Source of the DNA: an uncultured Actinomycetes bacterium
GTDB taxonomy: Bacteria > SZUA-79 > Acidulodesulfobacterales > Acidulodesulfobacteraceae
NCBI GenBank assembly: GCA_964631685.1
Contig: CAZVZU010000007.1
Span: 26,092 to 90,091, forward strand
Direction: 5' to 3'
DNA: 64,000 nucleotides
Shown: piece by piece, positions 3,102 through 41,136 of the stretch
How positions within the stretch are numbered: position 1 is the first letter of the stretch
Layout of the letters: every line of letters starts with the position of its first letter
Program-made: the position numbers and the translations under genes
Notes under the pieces: model-generated
The model's input: only the letters and a program-made list of their open reading frames with translations
The model's database searches: none
Told to the model about the DNA's origin: nothing

Positions 3102-3444
3102 TCGCAAGCAAAAACAGTTAGTCGCAAAGATCTTTATTAATGAGGTTTTTGAGGAAAGTCCGGGCTCCGCAGAGCATAACGCCGCTTTATACCGGTAAAG
3201 GTAACTTTAAGGAAAGCGCAACAGAAAATATACCGCTGTAATGATTTATCATCACAGTAAGGGTGAAATGGCGAGGTAAGAGCTCACCTGGGCGCTGTGT
3301 AAATAGCGACCATTGCAAGCCCCGTTAGGAGCAAGAACAAATAGGAAAACTTTAAGGTTGCTCGCCTTCTATGGTTTTCGGGTTGTTCGCATTACAGAGA
3401 AATGACTAATTCATACAGAACCCGGCTTATGGGTTTGCTTGCGA
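3102..3444 (+). ncRNA. rnpB: RNase P RNA, bacterial type A
   Basis: Universal motifs GAGGAAAGTCCGGGC (3151 region), AGGGTGAAATGGCGAGGTAAGAGCTCACC and ACAGAACCCGGCTTAT (3415-3430). The P1 stem pairs CGCAAGCAAA (3103-3112) with TTTGCTTGCG (3434-3443). Confidence 0.92.
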
Positions 3445-3468
3445 TTATCAAATATATCAACCACGTTA

Positions 3469-18036: not shown

Positions 18037-18191
18037 AAGAATTTTAATATCCTATTTTTAGTTAGTTTAAGTTGACTATGTATGAATTATATAAAAATCT
18101 TTATAAATAAACAATCTTATGTTAAAATCTACGGTGTTACAGTGTCGTAGCAATGATATAATCTTAGTTTAATTACACAACAGAGGACAAA

Positions 18192-19595
18192 ATGGATATA
18201 GAAAATATGAATTTCAACAGCATTATTGCAAATGCAAAAGTAAATGAAGAAGACTTTGTGGATATATTTATAGAATCTAAGGCATCTACCTTGCTGTCAA
18301 ACGAGGGGAAGAGGCTTGAAAAAGCAATCAGCGGAATAATTCAAGGGGCAGGTCTTCGGCTTATTTCAAACAAAAAGACATATTATGCTTATACAAATAA
18401 TTTAAATGAGAAAAATCTCATACAAATCGCAAAAAATTTAAAAAAAGCTGCATATAGTAATAGAAAAAATATGGATGAAATTGCCCCCTTAAACTTTAAC
18501 GAGAAACACTCAAGGGTAGATTTTCAAATCATTAGGGATGTAACTAGTGTTCCGATAGAAGAAAAATTGAAAAAGGTAGAGCCTGCCGTTAAATTTTCAT
18601 GGGATTTCGATAAAAGGGTTGTCCAGGTAAATGTTACCTATGTAGATTATAAGCAAGATGTAGTGATAGTAAATTCACTTGGAGATTTCGTAAGGGATTA
18701 TAGAGAGAATTTAGTATTTTTAACGCAGGTTGTAGTATCTAACGAAAAAAAGGTAGAGGTCGGATATGATGTATCGGGGGGATTTGTAGGTTTTGAGTTT
18801 TTCGATGATGTTGCAGTGGAAGATATTGCGAAAAGGGCTTTAGAGCGTGCGTTGACCCAGCTTGATGCGCCATTTGCGCCATCAGGAACCATGCCTGTGG
18901 TATTATCTAGTGAAGCTGGTGGAACGATGATACACGAGGCTATTGGCCACGGATTGGAAGCAGATATTGCCGGGAGTGGTTTGAGCGTTTATTCCGGCAA
19001 GATCGGAGAGCAGGTAACATCAAAATTAATAACAGTCATAGATGACTCTTCTTTAGCCGGCAAACGGGGTTTTTACAGATTTGATGACGAGGGAACGTTC
19101 TCAGATAAAAATATACTCGTGAAGGACGGTGTGTTAAAAAAATATATGACCGATAGGTTATCCAATATTAAATACGGGTATGAACTCACCGGAAACGGCA
19201 GGAGACAGTCTTACGAGAACTATCCTATAGTCAGAATGTCCAATACTATGATAGCATCTGGCAATTCTCTACCGGAAGATATTATAAAAAGTGTCGATGA
19301 TGGTCTTTTCGTGAAAAAGATGGGCGGAGGACAAGTTAATACGGTTACGGGAGATTTTGTGTTTGATGTTACGGAAGGATATGCCATAAAAAATGGGAAA
19401 CTATGCAATGCGGTTAGCGGTGCGACTCTTATGGGAAATGGACCTAAGGTTTTGGAAAACATAGATATGGTGGGTAATGATTTAGGATTTGGTATCGGAA
19501 CATGCGGTAAGGATGGGCAAGGTGTTCCTGTAGCGGATGCCCAACCGACACTGAGAATTCCGTCGATCGTTGTTGGCGGAAAAAGCAACGGGTAG
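18192..19595 (+). CDS. tldD: TldD family metalloprotease
   Basis: HEAIGHGLEAD zinc motif and a Gly-rich C-terminal domain (GGQVNTVTGDF). Confidence 0.88.
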   Translation: MDIENMNFNSIIANAKVNEEDFVDIFIESKASTLLSNEGKRLEKAISGIIQGAGLRLISNKKTYYAYTNNLNEKNLIQIAKNLKKAAYSNRKNMDEIAPLNFNEKHSRVDFQIIRDVTSVPIEEKLKKVEPAVKFSWDFDKRVVQVNVTYVDYKQDVVIVNSLGDFVRDYRENLVFLTQVVVSNEKKVEVGYDVSGGFVGFEFFDDVAVEDIAKRALERALTQLDAPFAPSGTMPVVLSSEAGGTMIHEAIGHGLEADIAGSGLSVYSGKIGEQVTSKLITVIDDSSLAGKRGFYRFDDEGTFSDKNILVKDGVLKKYMTDRLSNIKYGYELTGNGRRQSYENYPIVRMSNTMIASGNSLPEDIIKSVDDGLFVKKMGGGQVNTVTGDFVFDVTEGYAIKNGKLCNAVSGATLMGNGPKVLENIDMVGNDLGFGIGTCGKDGQGVPVADAQPTLRIPSIVVGGKSNG

Positions 19596-21139: not shown

Positions 21140-22505
21140 CTTTTGGCATTACACTTAATGCGGTTGAAATGGCCTTGAACATAATGCATCTAGCAATTTT
21201 TGGTTTTCAACTTTAAGGAAGCGAGGTATTTTTTAATTTAACCCTCACCGCACCAATGGTTTTACGGTATTGGAATTAAGGATATACATGTAAGTTTATC
21301 TCATGAAGAGGTCTTGATTGCATATGACCCTGTAAAAATTAGTAAGGGGGCCATAGAAAAAACTCTAACGGATCTTTGCTATTCCATCAGGGATCCCCGA
21401 AAGGTAAAAGCCTTTGAAGAGCAGGAAGCGGAGATGCAACTTGCTAAGAAATATTTAATTAGCCCTTTTATTCTTGTTTTTATTTCTCTTAGTCTTATGA
21501 TTTTTATGTGGTCAGGTAGCAGGCTAAAGTGGTTTGGTTGGTTAATGTCGGCCTTAGCGCTTGTAACAATGTTTGGACCGGGACGGCACATACAGAAAAA
21601 AGCATGGCAATCTTTAAAAAGGGGTATCCTTAATCAGTATAACTTGTTAGAATTTGGGGCATTTGCAGGGTTAATAGGCGGTTTCATCGGTTTTTTCGTT
21701 TCAAATTTTCCAATAGCGGATTTTTTTGCAGTATCCGTTTTCATAACAAGCTATCATATAGTAAGCGGTTTTGTTAGTTTATCGGTAAGGGCCAAGGCTT
21801 CCCGGGCCACTCAAAAATTATTGGATTTACAACCTAAAACAGCTATTGTTGTTATAAACGGAAAGGAGGTTGTTAGGAAGATTAGCGAGTTAAGGATTGG
21901 CGATTTAGTGAGAGTAAAGCCCGGAGATATAATTCCGGTGGACGGCATTGTTGTCAGAGGAGAAAGTGCGACCGATGAATCCATTGTGACGGGGGAATCA
22001 ATGCCTATTGAAAAGAAGAAGGAAGATGAGGTTGTCGGTGCTTCGATTAATCAGTTCGGTTCATTAGATGTCAAGGTAAATAAGGTTGGATATGAAACAT
22101 TTTTACGACAAGTGGTCAAGCATCTAGAAGAGTCCAGGGCATTAAAGCCCAATATCTTAATAATCGTTGACAAGGCGCTGAAGGTTTTCGTTCCGGGTGT
22201 TCTCATCTTTCGGGCAATGTTTGCCGCCCTTGCCGTTCTTGTTATGGATTATCCTTGCGCACTGGGAATGGCCATGCCCCTTGCTTTAATCAGGGGAGGC
22301 AGGATAGCCGCAAAAAAAAGGAATACTGATGCGTTCGGGAGAAGCATTTCAGGTATTTTCTAAAATTAGCAAGATTGTACTTGAGAAAACAGGCACAATC
22401 ACGCAAGGAAAACCGGCGGTCGTGGAAGTAGTAAATTATGATCATGACAAACAGAGCGTCTTATCCTATCAAATGAATGTTGTAGCTTTATTACAATATT
22501 GTTAA
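21140..22505 (+). pseudogene. Heavy-metal (CopA-type, P1B) P-type ATPase pseudogene: degraded HMA domain, frameshift, truncated after the phosphorylation motif
   Basis: HMA-like remnants occur in mixed frames upstream of 21314. The actuator motif TGESMP is intact. TM6 CPC reads YPC (DYPCALGMAMP). The frame breaks at the A8 run 22312-22319. The shifted frame continues GILMRSGEAFQVFSKISKIVLEKTGTITQGKP (DKTGT has become EKTGT) and stops at 22503-22505, so the N domain, most of the P domain and the last TMs are missing. Confidence 0.8.
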
Positions 22506-24655: not shown

Positions 24656-26989
24656 TTACGCATATTTTTTCAAGATCGGTACCTTTATAAAATCTAGCAA
24701 AACCATAAAGATCAATGTATAAATTATCGAATACAAGATCAAAATTAATGGAATTGGCGAAACCAACCAGCCGTATATCACCATTAGTGTCGCAAGGGCT
24801 ATGCCACCGAATTCAGCTATTAAAAGAGCCAGTGACGGCATAGAGTTCCATAAATGCGATCTTTCCCGGACTAAGAATATATTTGCATGACCCGAATAGA
24901 CCAATCCTAGAAATACGAGAGAGTCTAGCGCTGCCGGCGATAAATTAAGTATTTTCCAGCCCCACAGATAGATTCCAAAAATATATACGAGCCAGCCAAG
25001 CGAAAATGCCAGCGAAATTTCCATAAGTTCCCTTACGTTCCATTTATTAGGTTTTTTGGAGTATCTCACATTGTCCGTCGAAAGAGACATTGTTACGAAG
25101 TCATTCGTGAAAATAAGCAGAAGAATTACAAGCGGCGTAGCATCAAATTTTCCGAATAGCAGAAGTCCAAGTGCTAAAAATAACCCTATTTGTATGGTTT
25201 TAACTATCTTGTTTGATATGTACGAAAAGAGCCTTTGATAAACCTGCCGTCCTGTTTTTACCGCGCTTATCATGCCCGATAAACCCGGACTAGTAAGGAC
25301 AAGGCTTGCAGAAGCCTTTGCTACGTCGGTAGCATTGGATACTGCAATACCAACTTGTGCCTGTTTGAGTGCCGGTGCATCGTTAACGCCATCGCCAGTC
25401 ATTCCTATAACCTCTTTCCCTCCTTTTTGCAACGCCTTAACAAGATTATATTTATCTTCAGGAAAAATGCCTCCGTACACTTCACAGTTCAAGACCTCAG
25501 GTTTTAGTTCAACCTTTCCTTTTTCTTTTAGGCCGTTATAATCGCAAATTTCCCCGTTTATACCCAATTTTTCTGCAATATAGATTGCGGTGGCAGAATT
25601 ATCACCCGTTAGCATTCTGGTATCAACGCTTAACTCACGTAACTTAGCTATCACCTCTTTTGAATCTGGACGCGGTGGATCGGATAAAGCCAATAACCCA
25701 TAAAATTTAGGGGTGGCTCCCTCTTCTCCGCCCAAAACAGCTATTGTTCTTTCGCCCCTTCTGGCGAACTCTTCGGACTCCTTTTCCCAGTCAATGCTTG
25801 GATCAAATTCTTTTATGATTAAGGGCGAACCCTTTATTGCCATATAATTTTTTCCACCTTCTTCGTAGCGGGCTTCGGAACGCTTGTTAGCGGGGTCAAA
25901 CGGAATAAATTTAGTTTTTTTGGGAATGTCTACATTTAGCTCCTTTGCTTTATCCAGAATAACCTTATCTATGGCATCCATGGTTGCTTCTTCGGAAGCA
26001 AGGGATGCCATTTTTATTAAGTCGCTCTCGCTAAAATTATTGTGAGGACGAATTGTGGACAGAGTGAGCTCGTTTTTGGTTAGTGTTCCTGTCTTGTCGC
26101 TACACAAAATTTCCATTGCGGCGGAATCTTGGATGGCGCTCAGTCTTGTAGTCAAAACGTGCTCTTTTGACAGCGCTAGAGAACCAATTGCATTTGACAG
26201 TGTAAATGTTGGTGGAAGTGCAACTGGAATAGAAGCGATAAGCAATATAAGCGCAAATGGTAATACTTCTTCCATTGGAATGCCGGTGATCGCCGCAAAT
26301 ATAATTATCGCAATTACAAGCAAACCGTCCATGACAAGAAGATATTTAACTATAGACATAATTAGCATTTCTGCTTGGCTTGGAACCTTGGCTAATTTTA
26401 CAAGCTCTGTTGTTTTTCCAAAATAGCTTTTAGTGCCCGTTGCCGAGACCACGCCGCTTACCTCTCCCCTTTTTATAATAGAGCCGGAGTATATCGTATC
26501 CCCTTCCCCTTTCTCTATAGGTAAGGATTCTCCGGTTAATGCGGATTGGTCGACGCCTACGTTTCCCTCTGCGATTTCTAAGTCTGCCGGGGCAAAATCG
26601 CCCATACGCAGGCGAATGTAATCTCCGGGAACCAACTCTCTTGCCGGTAACATGAGCCAGTTACCATCCCTTAAAACCCTTGCCATTACCTGCAGGTTAT
26701 TTCGTAGTAACTCTACGGCGTTTTGGGCTTTTCGTTCATGAAAAAAACCTAAAACAGCATTAAAGAGAAGTAAAAAACCGATTATCACGGCATTTAGGAC
26801 TTTTCCAAAGGCTAATTCTATTAGGAGGGTAGCTTCAAGCATCCATGCTATAAAGCCCCAAAATTTAGATAAAAAAAGTAAAATAGGGCTGCGATGGTCA
26901 TCTGCAACCTCATTAGGGCCGTACTGCTCGAAAAGTTTTTTTGCTTCTTCGCTGGTCAGCCCCTTGGAATGATTCTGGTTCGTTGGCAT
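24656..26989 (-). CDS. P-type ATPase, plasma-membrane proton-pump-like (P3A-like) subfamily
   Basis: GLTSEEAKKLFEQYGPNEV N-terminus, TGESLP, CSDKTGTLTKNELT, MLTGDNSATA, GIFPEDKYNLVKALQ and MTGDGVNDAPALKQAQVGIAV. There is no HMA domain or CPC motif. The subfamily call comes from motif flavour only. Confidence 0.88.
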   Translation of the reverse strand: MPTNQNHSKGLTSEEAKKLFEQYGPNEVADDHRSPILLFLSKFWGFIAWMLEATLLIELAFGKVLNAVIIGFLLLFNAVLGFFHERKAQNAVELLRNNLQVMARVLRDGNWLMLPARELVPGDYIRLRMGDFAPADLEIAEGNVGVDQSALTGESLPIEKGEGDTIYSGSIIKRGEVSGVVSATGTKSYFGKTTELVKLAKVPSQAEMLIMSIVKYLLVMDGLLVIAIIIFAAITGIPMEEVLPFALILLIASIPVALPPTFTLSNAIGSLALSKEHVLTTRLSAIQDSAAMEILCSDKTGTLTKNELTLSTIRPHNNFSESDLIKMASLASEEATMDAIDKVILDKAKELNVDIPKKTKFIPFDPANKRSEARYEEGGKNYMAIKGSPLIIKEFDPSIDWEKESEEFARRGERTIAVLGGEEGATPKFYGLLALSDPPRPDSKEVIAKLRELSVDTRMLTGDNSATAIYIAEKLGINGEICDYNGLKEKGKVELKPEVLNCEVYGGIFPEDKYNLVKALQKGGKEVIGMTGDGVNDAPALKQAQVGIAVSNATDVAKASASLVLTSPGLSGMISAVKTGRQVYQRLFSYISNKIVKTIQIGLFLALGLLLFGKFDATPLVILLLIFTNDFVTMSLSTDNVRYSKKPNKWNVRELMEISLAFSLGWLVYIFGIYLWGWKILNLSPAALDSLVFLGLVYSGHANIFLVRERSHLWNSMPSLALLIAEFGGIALATLMVIYGWLVSPIPLILILYSIIYTLIFMVLLDFIKVPILKKYA

Positions 26990-30210: not shown

Positions 30211-31788
30211 ATGTTTATCATGATGAACAAGATATTGAATAGATTAAAAGTAATTTTCTCAGTTTATACGCCAATAGTCGTAATTTTTCTAATTATATCC
30301 CTGATATTTAATATAAATATTGATTCGGCGTTTAGCGATGGGTACGGAAATTTAAATATATTTCTTAAAAAATACAATATAAGCCTAAAGAAGCCAAAAT
30401 ATACCATAATAAAAGCTAAGAATGGGATGAAAAACGAGATACTTAATCTAAGTCAGAGAAAGGTCTATCCTGCGGCTCTTAAGAAAAAGGTTTCGTTGGC
30501 CGGAGATGGAAGTGTGAAATCAGCCTTAATGCTATTATCTCGCGAGATTAATATGCCGATAATCATTCACCATGGGTTTCCGAATAAATTAAACAATGAC
30601 GTATATTACGACAATTTACCCCTGTATAAGGTTTTAGACGGGCTCATAACTGCTAACGGTTTCAAATATGTATATCACAGCGGAGTAATATCTGTTTATA
30701 CAACGGAAGAAAAAATATTTCACATTCCTCAGTCAGATCTTATATCGTCATTTTCCTCGGTTGTCGGAATGAGTCGAAACAGCGGTGGGGGCAATCAAAG
30801 TGCATCCGGTTTAAGTGGCGGACAGAATGCTGCGGTCAACCCCACTTCATCCGGTTCGTTATCGTTAAGGCTTTCGGAATCATATAGCCTGTATAGTATT
30901 ATTTCAAAAAACATAAAGGAAATGCTTACAAAAACCGGAAAATACTTTATCAATCCAAAGGATGGTTTGATATGGGTTAAAGACCGGGTTTCCAACGTTA
31001 AAGCAGTTTCCAAATATATAAGGGGCATAAATAAGGCTTTTTCGAAACAGGTTTTTTTAAAGGTAGAGGTTATAGATGTGACCTTGAGTAAGGGATTTCA
31101 AATGGGAATAAATTGGAACTTATTATTTAAACAGGCATTTAAATCCAATATCCTAGGCATTAATGCCATTTCTTTTTCAGCGCAGCTTGCTTCAGGAAAC
31201 AGTATTAGTAATTTGCCCTATATAGGTTTTACCGGCAGGGGTAGTAGTAGGGCAATAATGGATGCCCTAAAGACTCAAGGCACAGCCGATGTTATATCGC
31301 AACCGAGACTCATATTGATGGATGGACAAACAAGGCTTATATCCTCAGGAACAATTACGCCTTATATCTCAAGCATTAAAACTATGGAACTGAGTTTGTC
31401 ACAAACAGAAACTTATCCCGTGGTATCACAGATTCAAACCGGGCTTTCCATATCGTTTACACCACATATAAACTTTAAAAATAATACTGTTTCCGTTACG
31501 TTAAGCCTGATTGATAATATAATTACAGGCTACCGTTCTTTCACCATTAACGGAGAAAGTTTTAGCAATCCGATAGTGGAGACAAAAAGTCTCTCTGATA
31601 CGGTAAACGTTAAATCAGGATCCACAATACTTGTTGGCGGTATCATAACCGCAAGAAAGATGAGAAACACTTACGAAATCCCCTTATTAGCGCAAATTCC
31701 CTTTATTGGAAGCTTATTTAAATCGGAACATGATACCACTAGAAAAGAGGATCTATTAATAATGCTAACGCCAGAAATAATAGAATAA
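30211..31788 (+). CDS. Secretin (GspD/PilQ/MshL superfamily), short form
   Basis: Signal/TM at the N-terminus, then an N0-like domain (VSLAGDGSVKSALMLLSREINMPII...LYKVLDGLITANGF), a Gly/Ser linker and an N1-like domain. The secretin core reads VISQPRLILMDGQTRLISSG and VGGIITARKMRNTYEIPLLAQIPFIGSLFK...LLIMLTPEII. Confidence 0.85.
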   Translation: MFIMMNKILNRLKVIFSVYTPIVVIFLIISLIFNINIDSAFSDGYGNLNIFLKKYNISLKKPKYTIIKAKNGMKNEILNLSQRKVYPAALKKKVSLAGDGSVKSALMLLSREINMPIIIHHGFPNKLNNDVYYDNLPLYKVLDGLITANGFKYVYHSGVISVYTTEEKIFHIPQSDLISSFSSVVGMSRNSGGGNQSASGLSGGQNAAVNPTSSGSLSLRLSESYSLYSIISKNIKEMLTKTGKYFINPKDGLIWVKDRVSNVKAVSKYIRGINKAFSKQVFLKVEVIDVTLSKGFQMGINWNLLFKQAFKSNILGINAISFSAQLASGNSISNLPYIGFTGRGSSRAIMDALKTQGTADVISQPRLILMDGQTRLISSGTITPYISSIKTMELSLSQTETYPVVSQIQTGLSISFTPHINFKNNTVSVTLSLIDNIITGYRSFTINGESFSNPIVETKSLSDTVNVKSGSTILVGGIITARKMRNTYEIPLLAQIPFIGSLFKSEHDTTRKEDLLIMLTPEIIE

Positions 31789-31813
31789 GAAATATCTAAC
31801 GGTCTATATTGTC

Positions 31814-33502
31814 ATGAAAATTGGAGAGTATTTAATATCTAAGGGAAAATTAACAAAAGAACAGCTGAGAGATGCCCTATTCATTCGAACGATAACCGGA
31901 AAAAGGCTAGGCGAGATATTAATAGAAAAGGGTTATGTAAATGATACGGATATTGCGATTTATTTAGCTAAGGTTACCGGAAGGCGGTATTTTAGTGAAT
32001 TAAATAGTGAAATAGTGGATAAAAATGAAAGCGAGAGACTGGGTTTTGCCTTTCTTTATGATATTCCGGCGATAGTAATTAAAGAGGACGGTTTGAATTA
32101 CATAATTTGTGGCGGGATAACGGGAAGCCTTTCCGAAAGGATGGCTTTTGATAATCGCATGAGTGGTTTTAAATTGGGAATATCGACAAAACGCAAGATT
32201 TATGAGGCATTGAATAGAACATTTATCAATAAATCTGTTTTTTCAGAAAAAGAAATTTTAAATGAAGCATTAGAAGTTGCATTATTAAAAGGTTCTCCTA
32301 ATGTAAGGATCAAACGATCGGAAAATTTTTACTTAGTAATCATAGATACAGATAATGGACACGAGACGATGAGGGCATTAGATTTGGCATCGGGTCAAAG
32401 AATAATAAATATCATAGCGACAAACTGTCAGGTTACACTTAAAAAAGGGGAAGGCTTGGATGCCAAATTTATTTTTATCTCAAATGTATATAAAGGGGCC
32501 AAGGTTAATGTAAGGGTTGTATTCTTACCCATTTCTTCGAAATTAGATAAGGAGTTGGCACTATTTGATGCGGTCATGAGAATTCATGGGTTAAATGAGG
32601 TTTTTGATTTAAGATACATAGGATTTTCTGATGCAAAGGCAGAAACACTAAAAAAATCATATACCTATCCCAACGGTTTTATAATCTCTACAGGGCCCAC
32701 AGGTTCAGGGAAGACAACGACATTTTATGCGATACTAAAACTTTTAGCCCAAAAGAAAAAGTCGATTATAACCATAGAGGATCCTGTTGAAATAGAGCTA
32801 AAAGAACCCAATATAACGCAAATGAATATATCGAAAGATTTTGGTTATGCGGAAGCTACCCGTGTTATGCTTAGAAGTGAACCCGACATAATGATGATTG
32901 GCGAAATAAGAGATGAAATAACGGCTAAATATGCATTGATTGCTGCAGAAACGGGCCACCTAGTTCTTGCGACTATTCACGCGAATACGTCACTTTCTGT
33001 GTTTAGAAGGTTTAAATCCTTAGGTATTGACATAGTACAGTTTTTTGCTCTTGCAAGAATGATAACCGCTCAAAGACTCTATAATCCTCTTTGCCGCGAC
33101 TGCAAGAAAAGATTAGAAATAGACGCTTTACCTCCATTATTCGAACATGCCCTAAAAGAAAATTTAAGATTTACCCTCGATATTATAGCTTTAGTTGATC
33201 CTGATTTTAGAAATTCAGAGCGGGTGGTTAACTTTCATTCGGTTTATGTGAGAGGTGAAAAGTTTTGCAATAAATGCGGAGGCGGGGGGTATATGAAAAG
33301 AAAACCCATGATTGAAACCGCAGAGTTTAACGATGCCGTGAAGGGAAAAGTGTTTAATGATCCGACGATATTGCTGAATAATTATAAGTTAGAGCAAGTA
33401 TTGATGAGTTTGGCAGATTTTAAATCGTTAAAAATTCAGGCTCTTCAGTCATTGATTGACGGAGAAATAGATCCGATAACATATTTTAACCTGTCGGGGT
33501 AA
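31814..33502 (+). CDS. GspE/PilB/MshE-type secretion ATPase with N-terminal T2SSE_N (MshEN-like) domain
   Basis: Walker A GPTGSGKTTT, Asp box IITIEDPVE, Walker B MMIGEIRD, His box GHLVLATIHAN, tetra-Cys CRDC...CNKC, and the N-terminal tandem RLGxxLIxxG motifs. Confidence 0.92.
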   Translation: MKIGEYLISKGKLTKEQLRDALFIRTITGKRLGEILIEKGYVNDTDIAIYLAKVTGRRYFSELNSEIVDKNESERLGFAFLYDIPAIVIKEDGLNYIICGGITGSLSERMAFDNRMSGFKLGISTKRKIYEALNRTFINKSVFSEKEILNEALEVALLKGSPNVRIKRSENFYLVIIDTDNGHETMRALDLASGQRIINIIATNCQVTLKKGEGLDAKFIFISNVYKGAKVNVRVVFLPISSKLDKELALFDAVMRIHGLNEVFDLRYIGFSDAKAETLKKSYTYPNGFIISTGPTGSGKTTTFYAILKLLAQKKKSIITIEDPVEIELKEPNITQMNISKDFGYAEATRVMLRSEPDIMMIGEIRDEITAKYALIAAETGHLVLATIHANTSLSVFRRFKSLGIDIVQFFALARMITAQRLYNPLCRDCKKRLEIDALPPLFEHALKENLRFTLDIIALVDPDFRNSERVVNFHSVYVRGEKFCNKCGGGGYMKRKPMIETAEFNDAVKGKVFNDPTILLNNYKLEQVLMSLADFKSLKIQALQSLIDGEIDPITYFNLSG

Positions 33503-33513
33503 TCATATATACA

Positions 33514-34788
33514 ATGAGAAACTTTTTGGTCAAATATTACACGCCGTCTGGCGTTAGCCTAGTGCAAAACATCCACGGACATGGGGCGAGAGAGGTCAAA
33601 GAAAGGCTTATTCAAGACGGCTATATGCCTATTTTTGTGATATCGAATATATTTTTAGATATTATACATCCATTGCAAAATGGGGGAATGAAAAATAAAG
33701 AACTCTCTAAATTTTTTATGGAACTTCATCATCTTACCAACGCGACGGGACAAGTAGGGAAGGCTTTTTTCTATATGAACAAAGAGGATAAAAAGCTCGA
33801 ACATAATGAAAGACACAAAATAATATATAGTTTTACATGGCTTTACCGTAATCACAGACAATCAAAATTTAAAAATAAGAAAAAATTTATTAAGCATGTT
33901 ATATCCGCGCTCAATAAAGGACAAACAATACGGGATGTCTTTGCATCAAATTATTTCGATGAAATAGTGCTGTCTTTGCTTGATTTAGCATCTTCTAGCG
34001 GGGATTATCCTGAGATATTTCTAAAAAATGCAGAGTATTTCGATGTAAAAAATGGACGCATAAAAAGCGTGATAGGGGTGATGGCTTATCCAGTATTCCT
34101 TTTCTTTTTATTATCCTTGGCTTTTTTAGTTTTCTTGTATTATGTAATTCCTACATTTGCTTTATTTTTTAGTCAATTTCGCCACATCAATGATTCTACG
34201 AGAAACGTCTTGAATATTTTTATGTATATAAAGAGCGTATTTGTATATTATGCGATATTTTTGGTGACCATATTGGTTTTGTTGGTTTCAAACTTATGGG
34301 ATCTAAAGACAAAGATTATGTCCTTTGCTGTAAATATCCCTCAAGTCGGCAACATTTTCAGATATAACTACTTACATTGGTTCTTCTACCAATTTTCCGT
34401 AATGATTTCATCGGGACTTACAATAACAGCCATATTGGATTATTTCAGGAGAAATGTTGCTAATCAATTTTTTAGTCACAAAATCAATATAATCTATGGA
34501 AAATTAATGGATGGGTTTACTCTGCATGAATCTCTTAATAATGCTGATTTATTGGAGGAAGAGGATATAGATTCTATCAAATATGCTGAACTAGGTGGGT
34601 TTTTACCGAAAACTATCATGAGGTTGTCAAATGAATTTAAAGAGAAATCAGATTTATCAATGCAAATATTTACTAAAGGGCTATTTTTGTTGGCCATGGT
34701 CTCGGTTGTAATATTTTTATTCCTGATGTTTTTTGTGCTTCTTTTGCCACTTATTCGCGGCATGATAAGCCTGCCGGGCAGTTACTAA
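33514..34788 (+). CDS. GspF/PilC-type inner-membrane platform protein (diverged)
   Basis: The N-terminus YYTPSGVSLVQNIHGHGAREVKERLIQDGYMPIFV is typical of PilC/GspF. Two internal repeats each end in an (E/S)SGxxP-type segment (ASSSGDYPEIF; AELGGFLPKTI), and about 3 TM segments are present. Confidence 0.78.
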   Translation: MRNFLVKYYTPSGVSLVQNIHGHGAREVKERLIQDGYMPIFVISNIFLDIIHPLQNGGMKNKELSKFFMELHHLTNATGQVGKAFFYMNKEDKKLEHNERHKIIYSFTWLYRNHRQSKFKNKKKFIKHVISALNKGQTIRDVFASNYFDEIVLSLLDLASSSGDYPEIFLKNAEYFDVKNGRIKSVIGVMAYPVFLFFLLSLAFLVFLYYVIPTFALFFSQFRHINDSTRNVLNIFMYIKSVFVYYAIFLVTILVLLVSNLWDLKTKIMSFAVNIPQVGNIFRYNYLHWFFYQFSVMISSGLTITAILDYFRRNVANQFFSHKINIIYGKLMDGFTLHESLNNADLLEEEDIDSIKYAELGGFLPKTIMRLSNEFKEKSDLSMQIFTKGLFLLAMVSVVIFLFLMFFVLLLPLIRGMISLPGSY

Positions 34789-34871
34789 TGCTTTTTTTGT
34801 TGCCGTATATAAAGCGGATTGTAATTTTAATATTTGATGGAAAATATAACATTTAGTGAGGAGGTTGGAAT

Positions 34872-35468
34872 ATGAGAGCGATATGTGAATTTCAAAATAC
34901 TGATTACCGTGATGATGCAGGCTTTACTTTAATGGAAATAATAGTTGCAATGATAGTAGTCGGGATACTATCTGCCGGCGGGCTTATGGTTTACAACGGC
35001 TTAATTGAATCATCCAATGTTACGGCCACGGTTCAGGCTATCTCTAAGATCGAATCTGCTGTGAATTCTTATGCGCAGGTGAACGGAGGAAGCATTGTCC
35101 CTCCAACCGGAGTTTCCTTGCCCCATGCAATGCAGGATGATTCCTTGATTCCCTCTTCATATACGGTAAATGGCGATAATGTAACGCCCCCAAATCCGGG
35201 GTTCGTACAGTCATATTATATATTTATAGGCTCTAATCCGGGGCAGTATAATTATGCTATAGGGATAATAGCACCGCAAATGACCAATGCACAGGCATTA
35301 AATATTTGTAATTCTGTGGAAAATTCAATTTCAGGGGTTAGTAGTAGCAAAAACGTGGAATTCAATATAGGTAATGGTCGGACCTGTCTGGACGATTTGT
35401 TTAATAGTGATGTTGGTAATGTGAATAATTCTATCTTCAACGGTAATTTAACATTCACATTCAATTAA
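34872..35468 (+). CDS. Type IV pilin / major pseudopilin-like protein with class III signal peptide
   Basis: GAGGAGG RBS. A 17-aa leader ends in G, followed by FTLMEIIVAMIVVGILSAGGLMVY (Phe+1, Glu+5). Confidence 0.8.
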   Translation: MRAICEFQNTDYRDDAGFTLMEIIVAMIVVGILSAGGLMVYNGLIESSNVTATVQAISKIESAVNSYAQVNGGSIVPPTGVSLPHAMQDDSLIPSSYTVNGDNVTPPNPGFVQSYYIFIGSNPGQYNYAIGIIAPQMTNAQALNICNSVENSISGVSSSKNVEFNIGNGRTCLDDLFNSDVGNVNNSIFNGNLTFTFN

Positions 35469-35483
35469 TGGGGGGCGATAATT

Positions 35484-36167
35484 ATGCAAAACGAGACTCG
35501 GTCTGTTTTTCATCCATTTTGGCGCAAGCTAAATTTTGTGTTTATAATTATATTTATATTGGGATTCATGTTCCCCTTTCCTGGATTGTCATATGCTTTT
35601 AGCAACGGAGAAATTTACAATAAAGAGGCGCAAAATATCGTGAATACTGCAGATTTAATTATAAAGGCGGAACATGCATATTCACAAAATATTGGAAGCG
35701 GAGAATTTACCGGCTTGCTGAATCTTGAGCGAGAGAAACCTCCTTACTTAAGCCACATGGCAGTTTATAGTTATAATAATTCCGAATGCGTAAGAAAAAT
35801 ATTGATGCAAGGCAAGGTTTATATATGTGTCAATTCCACGGATGCAAAATTAAATATTTTTATGCCTGCCGATCTTGCCTCTTTAGATTTAGTGGTACGC
35901 GAAATCAGCAAAGGTGTTACAGGTCAAAGGGATCGAATATATGATAATAAAGGCATGCCCGCAATCTCTCTTGGGTTAGATAGCCATTCTCTTTCGCCTA
36001 CATCAATCGGCAACAGGATATCTCCGATCGGTTCTGCCAATGTAAGCCTTAATGCTAATGGCGGAACAACATATACAAATACAAACTGTAAAAGGGGCAA
36101 TAATATCATTGCTCGGATTGAAACCGTTATAGTCAATCTTTTTGTATCGGCACTAAGCCTTTTCTAA
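35484..36167 (+). CDS. Hypothetical exported protein, pilin-head-like with Sec-type signal peptide
   Basis: GGGGGG RBS. The N-terminal hydrophobic segment ends LSYA/FS. The segment after it, NIVNTADLIIKAEHAYSQNIG, resembles the post-TM helix of both flanking pilin-like ORFs. Confidence 0.5.
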   Translation: MQNETRSVFHPFWRKLNFVFIIIFILGFMFPFPGLSYAFSNGEIYNKEAQNIVNTADLIIKAEHAYSQNIGSGEFTGLLNLEREKPPYLSHMAVYSYNNSECVRKILMQGKVYICVNSTDAKLNIFMPADLASLDLVVREISKGVTGQRDRIYDNKGMPAISLGLDSHSLSPTSIGNRISPIGSANVSLNANGGTTYTNTNCKRGNNIIARIETVIVNLFVSALSLF

Positions 36168-36203
36168 TTTGTGTACTTTTATCTTAATTTTTGGGGAAAT
36201 ATC

Positions 36204-37208
36204 ATGAAAAATAAATTTAACGGGATGTTCTTTAGAATTGCGGCTGTCCGCAATAAAAATAATAAAGGCTTTTCCCTTGTAGGAATTATTATTTCTATGG
36301 TTGTGCTTGGCATATTGACAATGTCAGCCATACCCACGCTAAAAGGAATCCTGTATAAAAATCAAGCAAATCATGTGTCAATTTTGGCAAATATTTTGAT
36401 TAATGCGGAAAGTACCTATGTAAATAACAATAATCAATTTAAGGGGATTGGCGGACTTCAGGCGGCTGGCTACCTGGCACAGGGACTGGGTATGGATTTT
36501 GTGGATAATAATCCTCACACAGATTGTATATACGGAACTATTACGGCAAAAGATGATACGAAGATATGTCTCATCGTGAATAATACGAACCGAAATGGGA
36601 TCTTGCGGGAGATAAGTTACACTTTAACTGTAACATCGAACTCAACTGTTCCGTCATCCAACTATTACGGTTATTATTCGGAAATTAGACGCAATATACC
36701 GGGTAGCTCAATTATTCATAAAAATGAGGTGGAGTATATAGATCCTATTGTATTGGGTGATACACAAGGTATCTACGGCCGATATATTGGAAAAAATTTC
36801 TATATAACAGGAGAGGTTTGCTATATCACTGAACATGCCTATATGAATACAGGGAGAGGCCATAAATACACAAGAACATACAGCGAAGGTGGATTGTTGC
36901 TATATTTTGTAGTCGAGGCCATAAATGGTAACAATGCAATATTAAGTTATGCCAATAAGCCTTCTTCCGTATGTACTTCTGATAAAAGTTTTACTAATAG
37001 TGCCGGTGACACATATTCTTATACTTCTTGGGTGGGCGGAGCATTTCAGAATGCTTATTTGCCGCAAATATGGGGGACCGTTAAATATTTGTATTGGCAT
37101 GGTGAAATGAGTCATGTGCCTGTCGAGTCTCCTGGTTATGAAATTGAGATACCGGCCAGTTATCTGCCACACTTAATAAATATAAATCAGTTGAATACCG
37201 CTAATTAA
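36204..37208 (+). CDS. Large prepilin-like protein lacking Glu+5 (GspK-like by size and N-terminus)
   Basis: A leader ending NNKG is followed by FSLVGIIISMVVLGILTMSAIP, where position +5 is Gly. The precursor is about 334 aa from ATG 36204; GTG 36171 is an alternative start. Confidence 0.55.
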   Translation: MKNKFNGMFFRIAAVRNKNNKGFSLVGIIISMVVLGILTMSAIPTLKGILYKNQANHVSILANILINAESTYVNNNNQFKGIGGLQAAGYLAQGLGMDFVDNNPHTDCIYGTITAKDDTKICLIVNNTNRNGILREISYTLTVTSNSTVPSSNYYGYYSEIRRNIPGSSIIHKNEVEYIDPIVLGDTQGIYGRYIGKNFYITGEVCYITEHAYMNTGRGHKYTRTYSEGGLLLYFVVEAINGNNAILSYANKPSSVCTSDKSFTNSAGDTYSYTSWVGGAFQNAYLPQIWGTVKYLYWHGEMSHVPVESPGYEIEIPASYLPHLININQLNTAN

Positions 37209-37222
37209 TAAAAAATAAAATT

Positions 37223-38536
37223 GTGATGAAATATAATTCAAATAACAAAAAAGGGATTAAGTGTATTTCTAGTGAAAAGTTAAATCGGATACATGTAGAT
37301 TTGGCGGAACCATCTTTATATCACTGTCTAATTTTTATTGAGGATTATGGTTTATATCAGTTTTTTAGCGGAAATCAATCTGTCTTTTCCAATGATAATC
37401 CGTGCAAAGAAAACAACACAAAGGTTGCCGTTATCTCTAAAAATATTTATTCTTCAAGTATCCCAGGCAATAACAATAATAATATACTTGCGGGTAGTAG
37501 CAATAAATTTTTTAAAAAATCGATAAATTTTAAACACATCAGGCAATATTACAAAAATGAATCTTACTTTTTATTTGAATGCGATACGGATAAATATGGA
37601 ATTTATCATACTCTTCCGGCAAATATTCAGAAATATTATTCACTCGGCATTGTAGACCTTGTTATTCCTTATGAATATTTGGTTATTTTATTCTTAAACT
37701 ATAAACTCACGGCGACTGCGGGACGACAGACTGTAAGAGGGCAATCTCATTTACTGTTTATTGAGGAAACAGATAAAATTTATAAAGCAGTGGCGGTGGT
37801 CAATGGACTTAATGTGTCACAGGTAATTAGTTTTAAAGATGACACACTTAAAGAAAATTTAAATTTTTTACAAACAGAACTTAACTCTAAAAAGATCAAA
37901 ATAGATAAAATTTTCACGAACAGCAATGACATTAAACCAGCATTAAATGGATTATTTTTAGACGCGGAGATTATCAGTTTTGAAATAAAGGAATTCTTTG
38001 ATTTTTTCAATAATATAAAACGGGACTCTATCCCTCATTTTGAAAATTTAGAAATTAAGGTTAAAGAATTAAAACACAAAAAAAATGTACGTAATAATTT
38101 GTTTATGGCAATTTTACTGACATATTTAATTGTCATTATAACCGGGATTACCTACTTGAATAACGTAATTGTAATAAAAAAAACGGGCATAATTCACTTA
38201 AACAGTAGAATAGTGATACTTAATGACAAAATATCAGATCAAAAAGCTAAATCATATATTAATAAAATCCTGACGCCATCTAATATTGCCGGCTATCTTA
38301 AAAAACTCATTGTAATATTGCCGAAAAATACAAAGATTAAAAATATCACGATAGTAAGGTCAAAAAAGGGTTATATATTTCGTGGTAAGGGTTTTTTTCT
38401 TGGCGGATACGGGGAATTCGTGAAAGATTATAATAAAATTGCAGAGAAATCATCAATATTTAAAATGTTCAACATAAGTTTTAACATTGATAAATTTGAC
38501 CAGCCAAGTTTTCAATTTATTATGGTTATAAGATGA
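37223..38536 (+). CDS. Hypothetical bitopic membrane protein, GspL / PilM-PilN-fusion-like topology
   Basis: About 290 aa of cytoplasmic region, a single TM (LFMAILLTYLIVIITGITYL), then about 125 aa with a coiled segment and a PilN-like alternating beta pattern. No motif-level identification is possible. Confidence 0.42.
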   Translation: MMKYNSNNKKGIKCISSEKLNRIHVDLAEPSLYHCLIFIEDYGLYQFFSGNQSVFSNDNPCKENNTKVAVISKNIYSSSIPGNNNNNILAGSSNKFFKKSINFKHIRQYYKNESYFLFECDTDKYGIYHTLPANIQKYYSLGIVDLVIPYEYLVILFLNYKLTATAGRQTVRGQSHLLFIEETDKIYKAVAVVNGLNVSQVISFKDDTLKENLNFLQTELNSKKIKIDKIFTNSNDIKPALNGLFLDAEIISFEIKEFFDFFNNIKRDSIPHFENLEIKVKELKHKKNVRNNLFMAILLTYLIVIITGITYLNNVIVIKKTGIIHLNSRIVILNDKISDQKAKSYINKILTPSNIAGYLKKLIVILPKNTKIKNITIVRSKKGYIFRGKGFFLGGYGEFVKDYNKIAEKSSIFKMFNISFNIDKFDQPSFQFIMVIR

Positions 38537-39189
38537 AAAATTTAGAAGACAAAAAAATATTATTAGTATTTTTTTTATTATTTCTGGCATGTTATTTTTC
38601 TATTTTTGCACTGTTTCCCTTAATCAAGCAGTATTACCATGTAAATTATAGGTATAGCAATAAAGTGGATACCGTACAAGTATTAAAAATGAAATTGAAT
38701 AGCATGAAGAAAATAAAGCTTATTAAATTTAAAGTCGGATACCATAAACTTTCCACATATCTTTTGACTATATTATCCTATATGAGTTACCTGCAAAATA
38801 TCGGTCTCAATGTTAACGTTAAACTTAAAAATGTTGGTGAAACGAGGATTTCTACGTATGATCCGAAATTGGCTAAGCTTATAAGCAAAAATAGGAACAT
38901 CTTTAAAATACAAAATGCACCGAGGTTCAAAAATAGATTTGGCCATGCAGATTTTATTGGCGGCAGTAAGATTAGAAAGTTTAAATATAATGATATAAAA
39001 AAATATATAGCATATGAAAGATTGACTATAATTTTAAACAAGGTTCCGAATATTAATGTAATATTTTCCCTACTAAAGATATTTAGATTATTTCCGATAG
39101 AAATTAAAAAAATTTCTATCAGTACAGATAGGAACATTGGCGTTATCTTTAATTTAAGATTAATAAACTTAAGTAAATTTTGTGAATAG
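38533..39189 (+). CDS. Hypothetical N-terminally anchored protein, GspM/PilO-like topology
   Basis: ATGA start/stop overlap with the upstream gene. A single N-terminal TM (ILLVFFLLFLACYFSIFALFPLI) is followed by a basic, K/N-rich remainder. Confidence 0.4.
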   Translation: MKNLEDKKILLVFFLLFLACYFSIFALFPLIKQYYHVNYRYSNKVDTVQVLKMKLNSMKKIKLIKFKVGYHKLSTYLLTILSYMSYLQNIGLNVNVKLKNVGETRISTYDPKLAKLISKNRNIFKIQNAPRFKNRFGHADFIGGSKIRKFKYNDIKKYIAYERLTIILNKVPNINVIFSLLKIFRLFPIEIKKISISTDRNIGVIFNLRLINLSKFCE

Positions 39190-39191
39190 CT

Positions 39192-39842
39192 ATGGATTTT
39201 AAAATTAGAAGGTTTTTTATCAAAGTAGCAAAGTATGCCATATCCGTGCTCATTATTGTTTCGTTCTTTATATTGATTTTAAATATTTTTATCAAGGTAA
39301 TGAGCCCTGCCAGCACTATTATGCTAAATATAGGGCATAATGACGAGACGAGTAGGCTACTTGATAAAAAGTCAATAAAGTATAGTTCCGCAAATAAAGG
39401 CAATAAAAAGTTAAATCTCCATAAATGGTCAAAACCAATTCGGTTAAAAGATCTTTTTAAGCCATCTTGCAATTTGTCCGATAGTAAAAAATTTAATTTA
39501 CCGTTTGTTCCGGTGCGCAAATATGGAACTATGTGGCAAAATAATCATGTAAAACCCGCACATGATTCTCCAAATGGAGTTTTTTCCGAAACTTACAATA
39601 AATCAGGCCGATATGTGCCTAATTTCGCCAAGGGCATGCGGCGTAAATTGGGTCCAAATGCATCCAATTTTTCTGTGCTGTTTGCAACAAATAAAATTGC
39701 CCTGGTCGAGATAGACGGAAAGAAATATTACGTGCGTCCTGGAATAAATATAAAAGGAAATTATATTTTGGGCGTAAGTTTATATGGCCTGAGGTATTCT
39801 TATGCCGGGAAAGTAAAAACAAAACATTTAAGTATTAATTAA
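39192..39842 (+). CDS. Hypothetical N-terminally anchored protein with GspC-HR/PilP-like C-terminal beta domain
   Basis: Starts 2 nt after the upstream stop. It has an N-terminal TM, and the C-terminus ALVEIDGKKYYVRPGINIKGNYILGVSLYGLRY follows the PilP/GspC pattern (value seen, G.Y.V..G..I....V..I). Confidence 0.42.
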   Translation: MDFKIRRFFIKVAKYAISVLIIVSFFILILNIFIKVMSPASTIMLNIGHNDETSRLLDKKSIKYSSANKGNKKLNLHKWSKPIRLKDLFKPSCNLSDSKKFNLPFVPVRKYGTMWQNNHVKPAHDSPNGVFSETYNKSGRYVPNFAKGMRRKLGPNASNFSVLFATNKIALVEIDGKKYYVRPGINIKGNYILGVSLYGLRYSYAGKVKTKHLSIN

Positions 39843-39936
39843 TTTTTTCAAAGCGGATATTGTTACTTTATTTTGGAATAGTTCGAATACACGCAAAAAA
39901 TTATTTCAATAATTATGATATAATAAAGGAGATTTA

Positions 39937-40320
39937 ATGGAACCTATAAAAAGAGCCAATGAAATCATGAAAACAATTTGGTCTATTTCGCCCGAAAAGT
40001 ATTTTGATACTAAATTTGAATATCAAGAGAGATTTTTCAACGAAAAATTTCATGGTTCTCAAATTCAGATTGATGACCTGTCCGAACAGAACAAGGCTGA
40101 ACATTTAGCATTAGACAAGAAGATTGATGACCTGTCCGAACAGAACAAGGCTGAACATTTAGCATTAGACAAGAAGATTGATGACCTGTCTGAACGGAAC
40201 AATACTGAACATGCCAATCTAGGAAAGAGAATTGATCGTAATTTTCAAATGACATTTTCTGTCCTTGGTTTAATCGTTGCCATGCTCGGCCTATTAGTTG
40301 CCCTACACTTTATCTCTTAA
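39937..40320 (+). CDS. Tail-anchored coiled-coil protein with 18-aa tandem repeats (DUF1640-like architecture)
   Basis: AGGAG RBS. IDDLSEQNKAEHLALDKK occurs twice exactly, with one diverged copy. The C-terminal TM is FSVLGLIVAMLGLLVALHFI. Confidence 0.6.
   Translation: MEPIKRANEIMKTIWSISPEKYFDTKFEYQERFFNEKFHGSQIQIDDLSEQNKAEHLALDKKIDDLSEQNKAEHLALDKKIDDLSERNNTEHANLGKRIDRNFQMTFSVLGLIVAMLGLLVALHFIS
40069..40230 (+). repeat. 54-bp tandem repeat, two identical copies plus one diverged copy, in-frame within the CDS
   Basis: 40069-40122 and 40123-40176 are identical base for base. 40177-40230 shares the first 14 nt and scattered positions after that. Confidence 0.95.
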
Positions 40321-40455: not shown

Positions 40456-41136
40456 TTAAATCAGGGCAAGAGTGAGGGCATCTATTGAGATCAACTTTAA
40501 ATAGGATACGATGTTGGAATAGTAAATTACTTGGTTTTCTCCGGCATCAATATTAATGTCTCTACCTAGTATGTCTATCGAAAATTCATTTAATATCTTG
40601 TGACTTAATGATACGATTTTCTTTAATTTTGCTGTTATTATCCTTGTCGTGCTTGTATTATGATTTTTTTGAAAAAATATATCTATATTTTCTTTAAAAA
40701 AAGAACTTACCGTGAGGGCGAAGTCGGGAATATGACCTTGCTTGCTGAATATCGGATAATGATAAAGTTCATTAATATTGTAGTTTATCAATACTAACGA
40801 ATTACTTGTATTTTTTAATATGTTAGAGAACCTGATTAGTCGCATAACGTTTAAGATTAAATCTTCTGAATTGTCATCTTGTTGTTTTCTGAAGGACTGC
40901 CATATGGCGTTTTTAATGCTGATTTTGTTTCTGTACAATGTTAAAACAGAGCGGGTGAGTTCATTTATTTCATTAAATATTTCACTCGTTTCGTTGTGCA
41001 CCAAATCGTAAAAGTTCAACTCATGCGGCTTATAGTTATTAGAAATAAGCTCGCTCAGTGTCTCTTCTAAGTTCTGCTCAACGATGCTTGAGAATTCACT
41101 TACTTTAATTGATATTTCTTTTATTTTATGTATCAT
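40456..41136 (-). CDS. Hypothetical all-helical cytoplasmic protein, no family recognised
   Basis: A 226-aa ORF kept open in very AT-rich DNA, with no TM segment or motif I can name. A PhoU/DUF47-like helical repeat was considered but is not supported. Confidence 0.45.
   Translation of the reverse strand: MIHKIKEISIKVSEFSSIVEQNLEETLSELISNNYKPHELNFYDLVHNETSEIFNEINELTRSVLTLYRNKISIKNAIWQSFRKQQDDNSEDLILNVMRLIRFSNILKNTSNSLVLINYNINELYHYPIFSKQGHIPDFALTVSSFFKENIDIFFQKNHNTSTTRIITAKLKKIVSLSHKILNEFSIDILGRDINIDAGENQVIYYSNIVSYLKLISIDALTLALI

Follow-up and report, generated by a model that had tools for sequence, protein, structure and literature searches.

The DNA analysed here is a stretch of 64,000 nucleotides of contig CAZVZU010000007.1 (hereafter the window) from an uncultured bacterium placed by GTDB in the Acidulodesulfobacteraceae, and our subject is a block of nine open reading frames (ORFs), o1 to o9, all on the + strand at 30211..39842 (Table 1). 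The spacings from o1 to o9 are 25, 11, 83, 15, 3, 14, -4 (an ATGA overlap at 38533) and 2 nt; coordinates and tight packing are exactly those of an initial annotation made from the sequence alone, which had recognised a secretin, a GspE/PilB ATPase and a GspF/PilC platform protein in the first three ORFs and had found the six distal ORFs devoid of any family signature. A T2SSE ATPase, a T2SSF platform and a prepilin with a class III signal (GFTLME) place the block in the type IV filament superfamily. The nine ORFs are genuine genes under purifying selection, and the region is, in our reasonably confident judgement, a single operon for a lineage-specific type IV filament machine.

Table 1. Genes of the filament operon (window positions) and the divergent filament clusters related to it (positions in the respective locus). 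TM, transmembrane; HR, homology region.
Feature	Position	Strand	Description
o1	30211..31788	+	outer-membrane secretin, 525 aa
o2	31814..33502	+	assembly ATPase, GspE/PilB/MshE class, 562 aa
o3	33514..34788	+	inner-membrane platform protein, GspF/PilC/ComGB family, 424 aa
o4	34872..35468	+	major prepilin, 198 aa
o5	35484..36167	+	pilin-derived accessory protein, 227 aa
o6	36171..37208	+	large minor prepilin; longest ORF 345 aa, likely start 36204 giving 334 aa
o7	37223..38536	+	GspL-like (fused PilM/PilN-like) bitopic assembly protein, from a structural model
o8	38533..39189	+	bitopic, 218 aa, N-terminal TM segment 9-27; putative PilO/GspM-class partner of o7
o9	39192..39842	+	bitopic, 216 aa, N-terminal TM segment 16-34; putative PilP/GspC-HR-class connector to secretin
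Divergent filament cluster	L088:7904-20884		
Divergent filament cluster	L086:8798-18452		
Divergent filament cluster	L087		same cluster, plus integrase at 17433-18512

The intactness of the distal ORFs had been taken as a sign of selection, and the statistics bear this out. With the base composition of each ORF taken into account, a stop-free run of its length has a probability of 1e-6 to 1e-20, and the longest run observed reaches 443 codons, as against 149 in 200 shuffles of 34872-39842. Ratios of dN/dS (Nei-Gojobori, unsaturated pairs with dS 0.26-0.74) are 0.05-0.21 for o1-o4 and o6, and 0.18-0.35 for o5 and o7-o9. The extreme composition that had been ascribed to all six distal ORFs is confined to some of them: the GC content of o7 (0.285) and o8 (0.260) is extreme, and among the 2 kb blocks of the window GC is lowest at 38001-40000 (0.289), whereas o4-o6 (0.37-0.40) and o9 (0.34) lie inside the window's range; likewise Asn, Lys, Ile and Tyr together make up 0.36-0.41 of o7-o9, but 0.27-0.33 of o4-o6, with o4 and o5 at 0.27-0.28. 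Scans of the region for promoters and terminators returned the same counts as in shuffles.

Relatives were sought in one genome per GTDB species by means of the ATPase, o2. Twelve loci were found with an ATPase 64-74% identical to o2, one of them in Candidatus Acidulodesulfobacterium, while the next-best ATPase matches beyond these are 27-44% identical over the aligned segment and mostly cover part of the protein only. The nine-gene order is syntenic in the 12 species-level genomes wherever the contig reaches, with identities to the window copy that fall to 38-48% for o7, 25-44% for o8 and 26-44% for o9. The initial annotation had named two outcomes that would tell against it, a subtype assignment of all nine genes and distal ORFs lacking conservation; what we found is synteny across the 12 related genomes and, as set out below, no such assignment. 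Seven relatives have contigs that extend to either side, and in each of them tRNA-Arg(tct) and tRNA-Arg(ccg) flank the operon; downstream of it in the relatives come a conserved 226-aa gene and then pgm. The same flanking tRNA genes in the relatives imply vertical inheritance, and the operon is a stable ancestral chromosomal locus. The lineage carrying it comprises uncultivated acid-mine and hydrothermal bacteria, known from metagenome-assembled genomes (MAGs) of the Ca. Acidulodesulfobacterium type; an identical operon is also present in the NCBI metagenome assemblies GCA_006240915.1 and GCA_006240815.1 and in a JGI sample labelled SWIR1.

Given this conservation, the view that the locus is a remnant, in decay or without function, and that its distal ORFs merely resemble genes, is effectively refuted. 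Four products without a family match, the very AT-rich DNA of o7 and o8, and the loss of o5 and o6 in one relative (L003) speak for decay, but the nine ORFs are intact in 12 genomes wherever the contig extends far enough, the dN/dS of the distal genes is that of constrained genes at the divergences given above, their stop-free runs far exceed those of shuffles, and o7 yields a confident structural model of recognisable architecture.

Two candidate explanations for features of the locus were rejected. A recent genomic island between two tRNA genes is ruled out by the presence of both tRNAs around the operon in seven relatives, and a fusion of o8 and o9, or a pseudogene, in L003 is ruled out by the stop codon present there. 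Two small ORFs adjoin the operon in the window. The 226-aa ORF (40456-41136, - strand), between o9 and tRNA-Arg(ccg), has no Pfam match and is kept in the seven relatives extending past the operon. A 127-aa ORF just 3' of the operon (39937-40320, + strand) has a C-terminal TM segment and, at 40067-40212, 2.7 tandem copies of a 54-nt unit that encode an 18-residue coiled-coil-like repeat; by tblastn it is found in L010 only, whose contig stops right after the match.

The identities given to the first three genes stand, with Pfam matches of o1 to Secretin (2.5e-33), of o2 to T2SSE (8e-58) and of o3 to T2SSF (5.6e-21, in two stretches). NCBIfam subtype models (MshL, PilQ, GspD, PilB, GspE, ComGA, ComGB) were each judged against their own cut-off; no subtype cut-off was reached by any of o1-o3, and the top models differ by gene (MshL; PilB or GspE; ComGB). 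The secretin has a signal or TM segment at its N-terminus (residues 14-32), after which an N-domain region and a linker rich in Ser and Gly (~178-215) lead to the secretin core (352-525). Its top model is MshL (TIGR02519; 161.8 bits vs a cut-off of 250.2), and further scores are 121.9 vs 287.7 for type IVb (T4b) PilN (TIGR02520), 118.5 vs 351 for GspD and 111.4 vs 284.4 for PilQ; in a PDB sequence search PilQ, BfpB and GspD all match at ~61-63 bits. The top annotated matches among plasmid proteins are T4b secretins of the PilN family, at 24-26% identity and with the N-domain covered. In the relatives o1 is 59-65% identical to the window copy, with dN/dS of 0.13-0.18. The platform protein, 50-65% identical in the relatives, scores best with ComGB (118.2 bits vs 240), followed by GspF (76.1 vs 424) and PilC (54.7 vs 700).

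The ATPase, whose Walker A motif reads GPTGSGKTT, scores 183.9 bits vs 675.7 with PilB, 177.6 vs 630 with GspE and 163.7 vs 300 with ComGA; Thermus PilF is its best PDB sequence match (163 bits), with PilB and GspE at ~137, and in the core it shares 41% identity with E. coli GspE and 27.5% with T4b PilQ. Residues 2-53 (31817-31972) match an MshE-type domain for the binding of cyclic di-GMP (c-di-GMP); the score with the MshEN-related model NF053729, 52.8 bits, exceeds the cut-off of 38, and a CxxC...CxxC tetracysteine motif at residues 427-488 is kept in all orthologues. Both 24-residue MshEN motifs are recognisable and conserved in the orthologues, each one position off the relaxed pattern published for them (Wang et al., 2016; PMC5013675). 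The MshEN domain and the tetracysteine motif had been missed in the initial annotation, as had the second prepilin, the pilin ancestry of o5 and the mobile-element relatives, to which we now turn in that order.

The claim that the six distal genes are without signature holds for o5, o7, o8 and o9, but not for o4 and o6, which both exceed the Pfam N_methyl cut-off of 21.2 bits (28.3 and 24.9, respectively). The class III signal of o4, ...DDAG|FTLMEIIVAM, has Gly-1, Phe+1 and Glu+5; the mature protein of ~181 aa, which exceeds E. coli GspG in length, carries two invariant Cys near its C-terminus (146, 172) that could form a disulfide. In most relatives o4 has the highest identity to the window copy among the nine genes (69-76%), its mean column identity is 80% and its dN/dS 0.05-0.11. 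PDB profile matches of o4 are confined to the N-terminal helix of type IV pilins, and the NCBIfam GspH and GspJ matches, which belong to o4, are confined to the same helix; with GspG it scores 23.5 bits vs a cut-off of 88.9.

For o6, public gene calls give 334 aa and a start at 36204, and this is therefore probably the true start. The signal of o6, KG|FSLVGIIISM, has Gly in place of Glu at +5, the protein has four invariant Cys, and its N-terminus aligns with that of o4 (hhalign E 1e-7). All 25 clusters of o6 homologues come from this lineage. An AlphaFold model (pLDDT 62) predicts a long N-terminal helix and a beta-rich body, for which Foldseek returned no match at E below 0.1; o6 matches none of the NCBIfam GspH, GspI, GspJ or GspK models, and its comparison with E. 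coli GspK (hhalign) is not significant. The statement that GspH/I/J-type minor pseudopilins are missing is thus right as to these families, but a minor pilin, o6, and a pilin-derived paralogue, o5, do exist. The latter has hydrophobic segments at the N-terminus (18-36) and C-terminus (208-226), is without a prepilin cleavage motif and matches nothing in Pfam or NCBIfam. Over the ~85 residues directly after the first hydrophobic segment, hhalign finds it similar to the o6 family (E 4.8e-5, 83 columns, two invariant Cys aligned), which marks o5 as a paralogue of o6 that lacks the prepilin cleavage site; its dN/dS is 0.22-0.32. In L003 (13047-14824) o5 and o6 are both cleanly absent, with the o4 stop at 13625, the o7 start at 13643 and the other genes intact. 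This joint loss suggests that o5 and o6 are a dispensable two-gene module whose products work together.

The protein o7, whose orthologues start ~31 residues downstream of the longest-ORF start, so that its true start is likely to differ too, has no Pfam, NCBIfam or PDB sequence match. All of its 23 homologue clusters come from this lineage, and when 1.84 billion representative proteins were searched exhaustively with its profile, only 10 matches came up at E ≤ 0.001, none of them with a known domain. Its AlphaFold model (pLDDT 73.3) is more telling: a cytoplasmic actin-like part (~32-275) is predicted to consist of two RNase H-like subdomains; after it come a long helix that includes a TM segment (~293-311) and, in the periplasm, an alpha-beta-beta repeat domain (355-436). 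In Foldseek the cytoplasmic part matches BT_3980 (3e-7), PilM (2e-6) and the cytoplasmic domains of GspL, PulL and EpsL (2e-6 to 1e-5); TM-scores normalised to the target are 0.41-0.48 for GspL/PulL/EpsL and 0.29-0.37 for PilM. By Foldseek E value PilM matches as well as GspL does, and the size fits GspL best. The model thus confirms the L-like gene of the initial annotation as a GspL/PilM-type protein, by predicted structural resemblance only, and a separate PilM is indeed not present in the window, its counterpart apparently being the PilM-like part fused within o7. Comparisons of o7 with E. coli GspL and with T4b PilO2 (hhalign) are not significant.

Position and topology make o8 a putative protein of the PilO/GspM class, in keeping with the M-like label it had been given; this label finds no echo in homology, as PDB profile searches, Pfam scans of the orthologues and hhalign gave no profile match, and hhalign showed no similarity to E. 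coli GspM, to PilP (0.49) or to the periplasmic part of o7. The gene always stands immediately 3' of an o7 homologue, both in the relatives and in mobile-element clusters, and its dN/dS is 0.18-0.24. In the window and in its closest relative, L010, the periplasmic part of o8 is longer by some 50 inserted residues (residues ~101-164, 64 of them in the window's copy); the other chromosomal orthologues do not have this insertion.

In o9 the TM segment leads into a linker that varies, and the beta domain at the C-terminus (~158-210) is conserved. The o9 family aligns with the T4b PilP profile (hhalign E 0.0029, residues 175-207) and more weakly with a single PilP (0.024) and with the HR region of E. 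coli GspC (P 0.06); all three comparisons fall on the same core domain, whereas the control, o8 against PilP, gave 0.49. This weak profile support, with position and topology, is suggestive of the PilP/GspC-HR class and agrees with the C- or P-like gene that had been proposed at this place. No PDZ match and no PDZ or coiled-coil module was found in o9. One o9 orthologue gave T2SSB (E 0.12) in the per-member Pfam scans, which yielded nothing usable for the orthologues and remote homologues of o8 and o9; PDB profile searches with o7, o8 and o9 returned nothing, also when divergent mobile-element homologues were added.

These divergent homologues were reached through the two remotest o7 matches (P0056, P0057), which sit in rearranged clusters with the same components, in the order o7-like, o8-like, o9-like, secretin, pilins, ATPase, platform and a small ORF. 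Such clusters on conjugative elements are the only relatives outside the chromosomal clade. Identities to the window are 42% for the secretin, 38% for the ATPase (full length, including MshEN), 31-34% for the platform, 31-37% for o8 and 32% for the C-terminus of o9; the pilin is 57% identical with a near-identical N-terminus, and an o6-like pilin without Glu5 is present too. The clusters (L086-L089) are embedded among genes for TraG/T4CP, CagX/VirB9-like (8e-5), TrbI/VirB10, ParB, topoisomerase, AbiEii and integrase; in L088 the pilus genes stand between VirB9-like and VirB10-like genes, and in L086 an HD-GYP-type gene lies immediately upstream of the cluster. The T4b pilus cluster of pMP-R124 is likewise embedded among type IV secretion system (T4SS) genes. 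The o9 homologue lies directly upstream of the secretin, and the resulting order o7-o8-o9-secretin mirrors pilMNOPQ and mshIJKL, which lends independent support to the roles proposed for o7-o9. Since the locus-tag prefix ACYDDB is common to one mobile-element cluster and a chromosomal o7 orthologue, one MAG appears to hold both versions.

These relatives raise the alternative that the operon is a chromosomally fixed derivative, or the donor, of a conjugative-element pilus, and that it would serve contact between cells or the exchange of DNA (mating-pair stabilisation or DNA uptake) and not surface attachment. The identities of 42% (secretin), 38% (ATPase) and 57% (pilin) to clusters embedded in conjugative gene sets, the co-occurrence of one such cluster with a chromosomal copy in the ACYDDB MAG, the secretin's best plasmid matches among T4b mating-pilus PilN proteins and the top model of the platform, the competence protein ComGB, all point in this direction. 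However, Pfam found no conjugation genes within the window, beside the chromosomal operon; the locus is fixed between the same tRNA genes and hence vertical; no ComEA/ComEC-type DNA-uptake genes occur among the window ORFs with Pfam data, a scan that covered part of the ORFs; and the ATPase is closer to GspE/PilB than to T4b PilQ. We regard this alternative as quite improbable. A comparison with the T4b conjugative pili themselves (R64 or pKLC102-type PilN-PilO2-PilP-PilQ-PilR-PilS) leads to a similar picture: the plasmid matches of the secretin, the weak alignment of the o9 C-terminus with PilP and the relatives among T4SS genes are points of likeness, whereas the low identity of the ATPase to PilQ (27.5%, vs 41% to GspE), its MshEN domain and tetracysteine motif, an o7 unlike PilO2, the T4b PilN score far short of its cut-off (121.9 vs 287.7), the Phe+1 of o4 and its short leader in the relatives set the operon apart, as does the lack within it of a PilV shufflon adhesin, a PilT-like ATPase and a lytic transglycosylase.

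None of the other known systems accommodates the nine genes either. The pilus of the mannose-sensitive haemagglutinin (MSHA) type is close in several respects: MshL is the top secretin model, o2 carries an MshE-type N-terminal domain predicted to bind c-di-GMP, one apparently fused PilM/PilN-type protein is followed by small bitopic proteins, a retraction ATPase is not linked, and the mobile-element relatives show the I-J-K-L-like order o7-o8-o9-secretin. In Vibrio, MSHA includes MshM (an AAA ATPase) and MshN (with TPR) and is encoded by two operons, I-J-K-L-M-N-E-G-F and B-A-C-D-O-P-Q. Here, by contrast, there is one operon in the order secretin-ATPase-platform-pilins-o7-o8-o9 with three pilin-like genes only; no equivalent of MshM (AAA) or MshN (TPR) is found among the nine genes, o7, o8 and o9 have no sequence similarity to described families, and even MshL falls short of its cut-off. 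With type IVa pili (T4aP) the operon shares a secretin, a PilP-like connector, PilN/PilO-like bitopic proteins, an actin-like cytoplasmic protein, an extension ATPase and a platform, as well as the Phe+1/Glu+5 and C-terminal Cys pair of o4; it differs in that the PilM- and PilN-like parts appear fused in o7, PilT/PilU are not in the window, the PilB, PilC and PilQ models are far under their cut-offs, and the genes form a single compact operon without the PilE/V/W/X/FimU-type minor pilin set. As to the Com pilus of monoderms, ComGA and ComGB are under their cut-offs, and a secretin, of which Com has none, is present here (o1). MSHA, the type II secretion system (T2SS), T4aP, T4b pili and Com each fail at least one defining feature in the operon, and no NCBIfam equivalog cut-off is reached for any of them, as had been anticipated in calling it a diverged type IV filament system outside the characterised subtypes. 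The kind of system is an already known one, and its accessory proteins are families confined to this lineage.

The T2SS deserves separate consideration, as the order D-E-F-pilin...L-like-M-like-C-like is near that of gsp operons. In a reduced T2SS, o4 would form a short periplasmic pseudopilus capped by o6, exoproteins would leave through o1, and the parts of GspL, GspM and GspC would fall to o7, o8 and o9. The predicted architecture (actin-like cytoplasmic domain, TM, periplasmic domain, the last being ferredoxin-like in GspL) and size of o7 are those of GspL, and its TM-scores are higher with GspL/PulL/EpsL than with PilM. GspK is a large minor pilin without Glu5, which o6, the one minor pilin lacking this residue, recalls; in the xps genes of Xanthomonas a C-like gene follows M. 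Further, o4 is the most conserved gene of the operon, as GspG usually is, a retraction ATPase is not linked, and MshEN-type ATPases are found in T2SS too (PMC5013675). Against this, the GspD, GspE, GspF and GspG models all score far under their cut-offs, GspF even under ComGB; equivalents of GspH, GspI and GspJ are lacking, the GspH/I/J/K set is not matched and o6 is the only further prepilin; hhalign comparisons with E. coli GspC, GspK (o6), GspL (o7) and GspM (o8) are not significant; the mature pilin of ~181 aa with its C-terminal Cys pair is unlike E. coli GspG (145 aa as annotated); o9 is without a PDZ domain or coiled-coil module; and it is on conjugative elements that the nearest relatives are found, where the task of filaments is contact between cells and not secretion. 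A reduced T2SS therefore seems unlikely to us.

The surroundings of the operon add little to the machine. As the initial annotation had stated, the window holds neither a prepilin peptidase nor a PilT-type ATPase: no A24 motif or GspO homologue and no second T2SSE-type ATPase or PilT-like paralogue was found in it. No further GFxxxE prepilin occurs in the window beyond the operon, and a motif search of the window for GGDEF, EAL, HD-GYP and PilZ found none. The other window ORFs with Pfam data (20 scanned, plus precomputed flanking entries) are housekeeping only: sigma-70, signal peptidase I, pyrimidine synthesis, alanine racemase, P-type ATPases, Nramp, GalE, PGM and enolase. A 349-aa ORF at 21314-22363 (+ strand) with an E1-E2_ATPase actuator domain only lies near a full-length 777-aa P-type ATPase gene (24656-26989, - strand) and could represent such a gene in truncated or split form. 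At 3105-3445 (+ strand), next to tRNA-Met (1004-1079), lies the gene for a bacterial class A RNase P RNA (245 bits).

The reading we favour is that of a complete type IV filament machine, in which o4 would be assembled into a surface pilus that passes through the o1 secretin, probably under the control of c-di-GMP; we think it somewhat better than an even chance. Most likely, this is an extension-only, c-di-GMP-responsive pilus of an unclassified type IV filament system. By analogy with homologous systems, from which the individual steps are drawn, the o4 prepilin would be cut between Gly-1 and Phe+1 by a prepilin peptidase encoded elsewhere in the genome, the sole part lacking from the operon, and then kept in the inner membrane. 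A hexamer of o2 would dock on both the platform protein o3 and the actin-like domain that o7 exposes to the cytoplasm, and its MshE-type N-terminal domain would couple polymerisation to c-di-GMP. The Glu5-less o6, probably together with its paralogue o5, may prime or cap the filament at the tip; the periplasmic parts of o7, o8 and o9 would bridge the platform to the secretin, through which the filament would exit the cell. The product would be an adhesive surface pilus, plausibly for attachment to sulfide minerals or other cells. Since no retraction ATPase is linked to the operon, its closest functional analogue would be the MSHA-type, extension-driven adhesive pilus; in V. cholerae, the binding of c-di-GMP by MshE governs both attachment and the extension of the MSHA pilus (PMC7096442).

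Several observations weigh against this reading of a c-di-GMP-gated surface pilus. The terminal Gln of the two MshEN motifs, which contacts the ribose and phosphate of the ligand, is replaced by Arg and Val in the window's o2, so that binding of c-di-GMP by o2 is only plausible; the first ligand-contacting Gln is retained by most orthologues. A prepilin peptidase was found neither in the window nor in the 10 kb flanks of the relatives, the model of o6 is of low confidence, and o8 draws no support from homology. The very strong conservation of o4 and the D-E-F-pilin...L-M-C order resemble a T2SS pseudopilus. In favour of the reading is a pilA transcript reported from Acidulodesulfobacterales metatranscriptomes (PMC6776010), which is not tied to o4; the supplements of the 2019 ISME paper contain no pil or gsp terms.

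We also consider, as a tentative proposal, that the operon and its mobile-element relatives make up a separate, unnamed branch of type IV filaments of the rank of MSHA or the T4b pili, confined to the Ca. Acidulodesulfobacteriota and their conjugative elements, with L-, M- and P-class proteins of its own and a pilin-derived non-prepilin subunit (o5), whose machine has been transferred between a fixed site on the chromosome and conjugative elements. If true, this would be a worked example of a mating pilus that was domesticated, or of a host pilus that was captured. The paralogous clusters in conjugative elements of the same lineage offer a concrete case for studying how chromosomes and mobile elements exchange filament machines. 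The predicted GspL/PilM fold of o7 suggests that accessory parts of type IV filament machines can drift far. Given that o7 is invisible to Pfam, NCBIfam and PDB profiles and to a hidden Markov model search of 1.84 billion proteins, profile tools will undercount or misclassify such systems in uncultivated phyla. For this acid-mine and hydrothermal lineage, the operon is a candidate for a c-di-GMP-controlled attachment organelle with an unusually conserved pilin.

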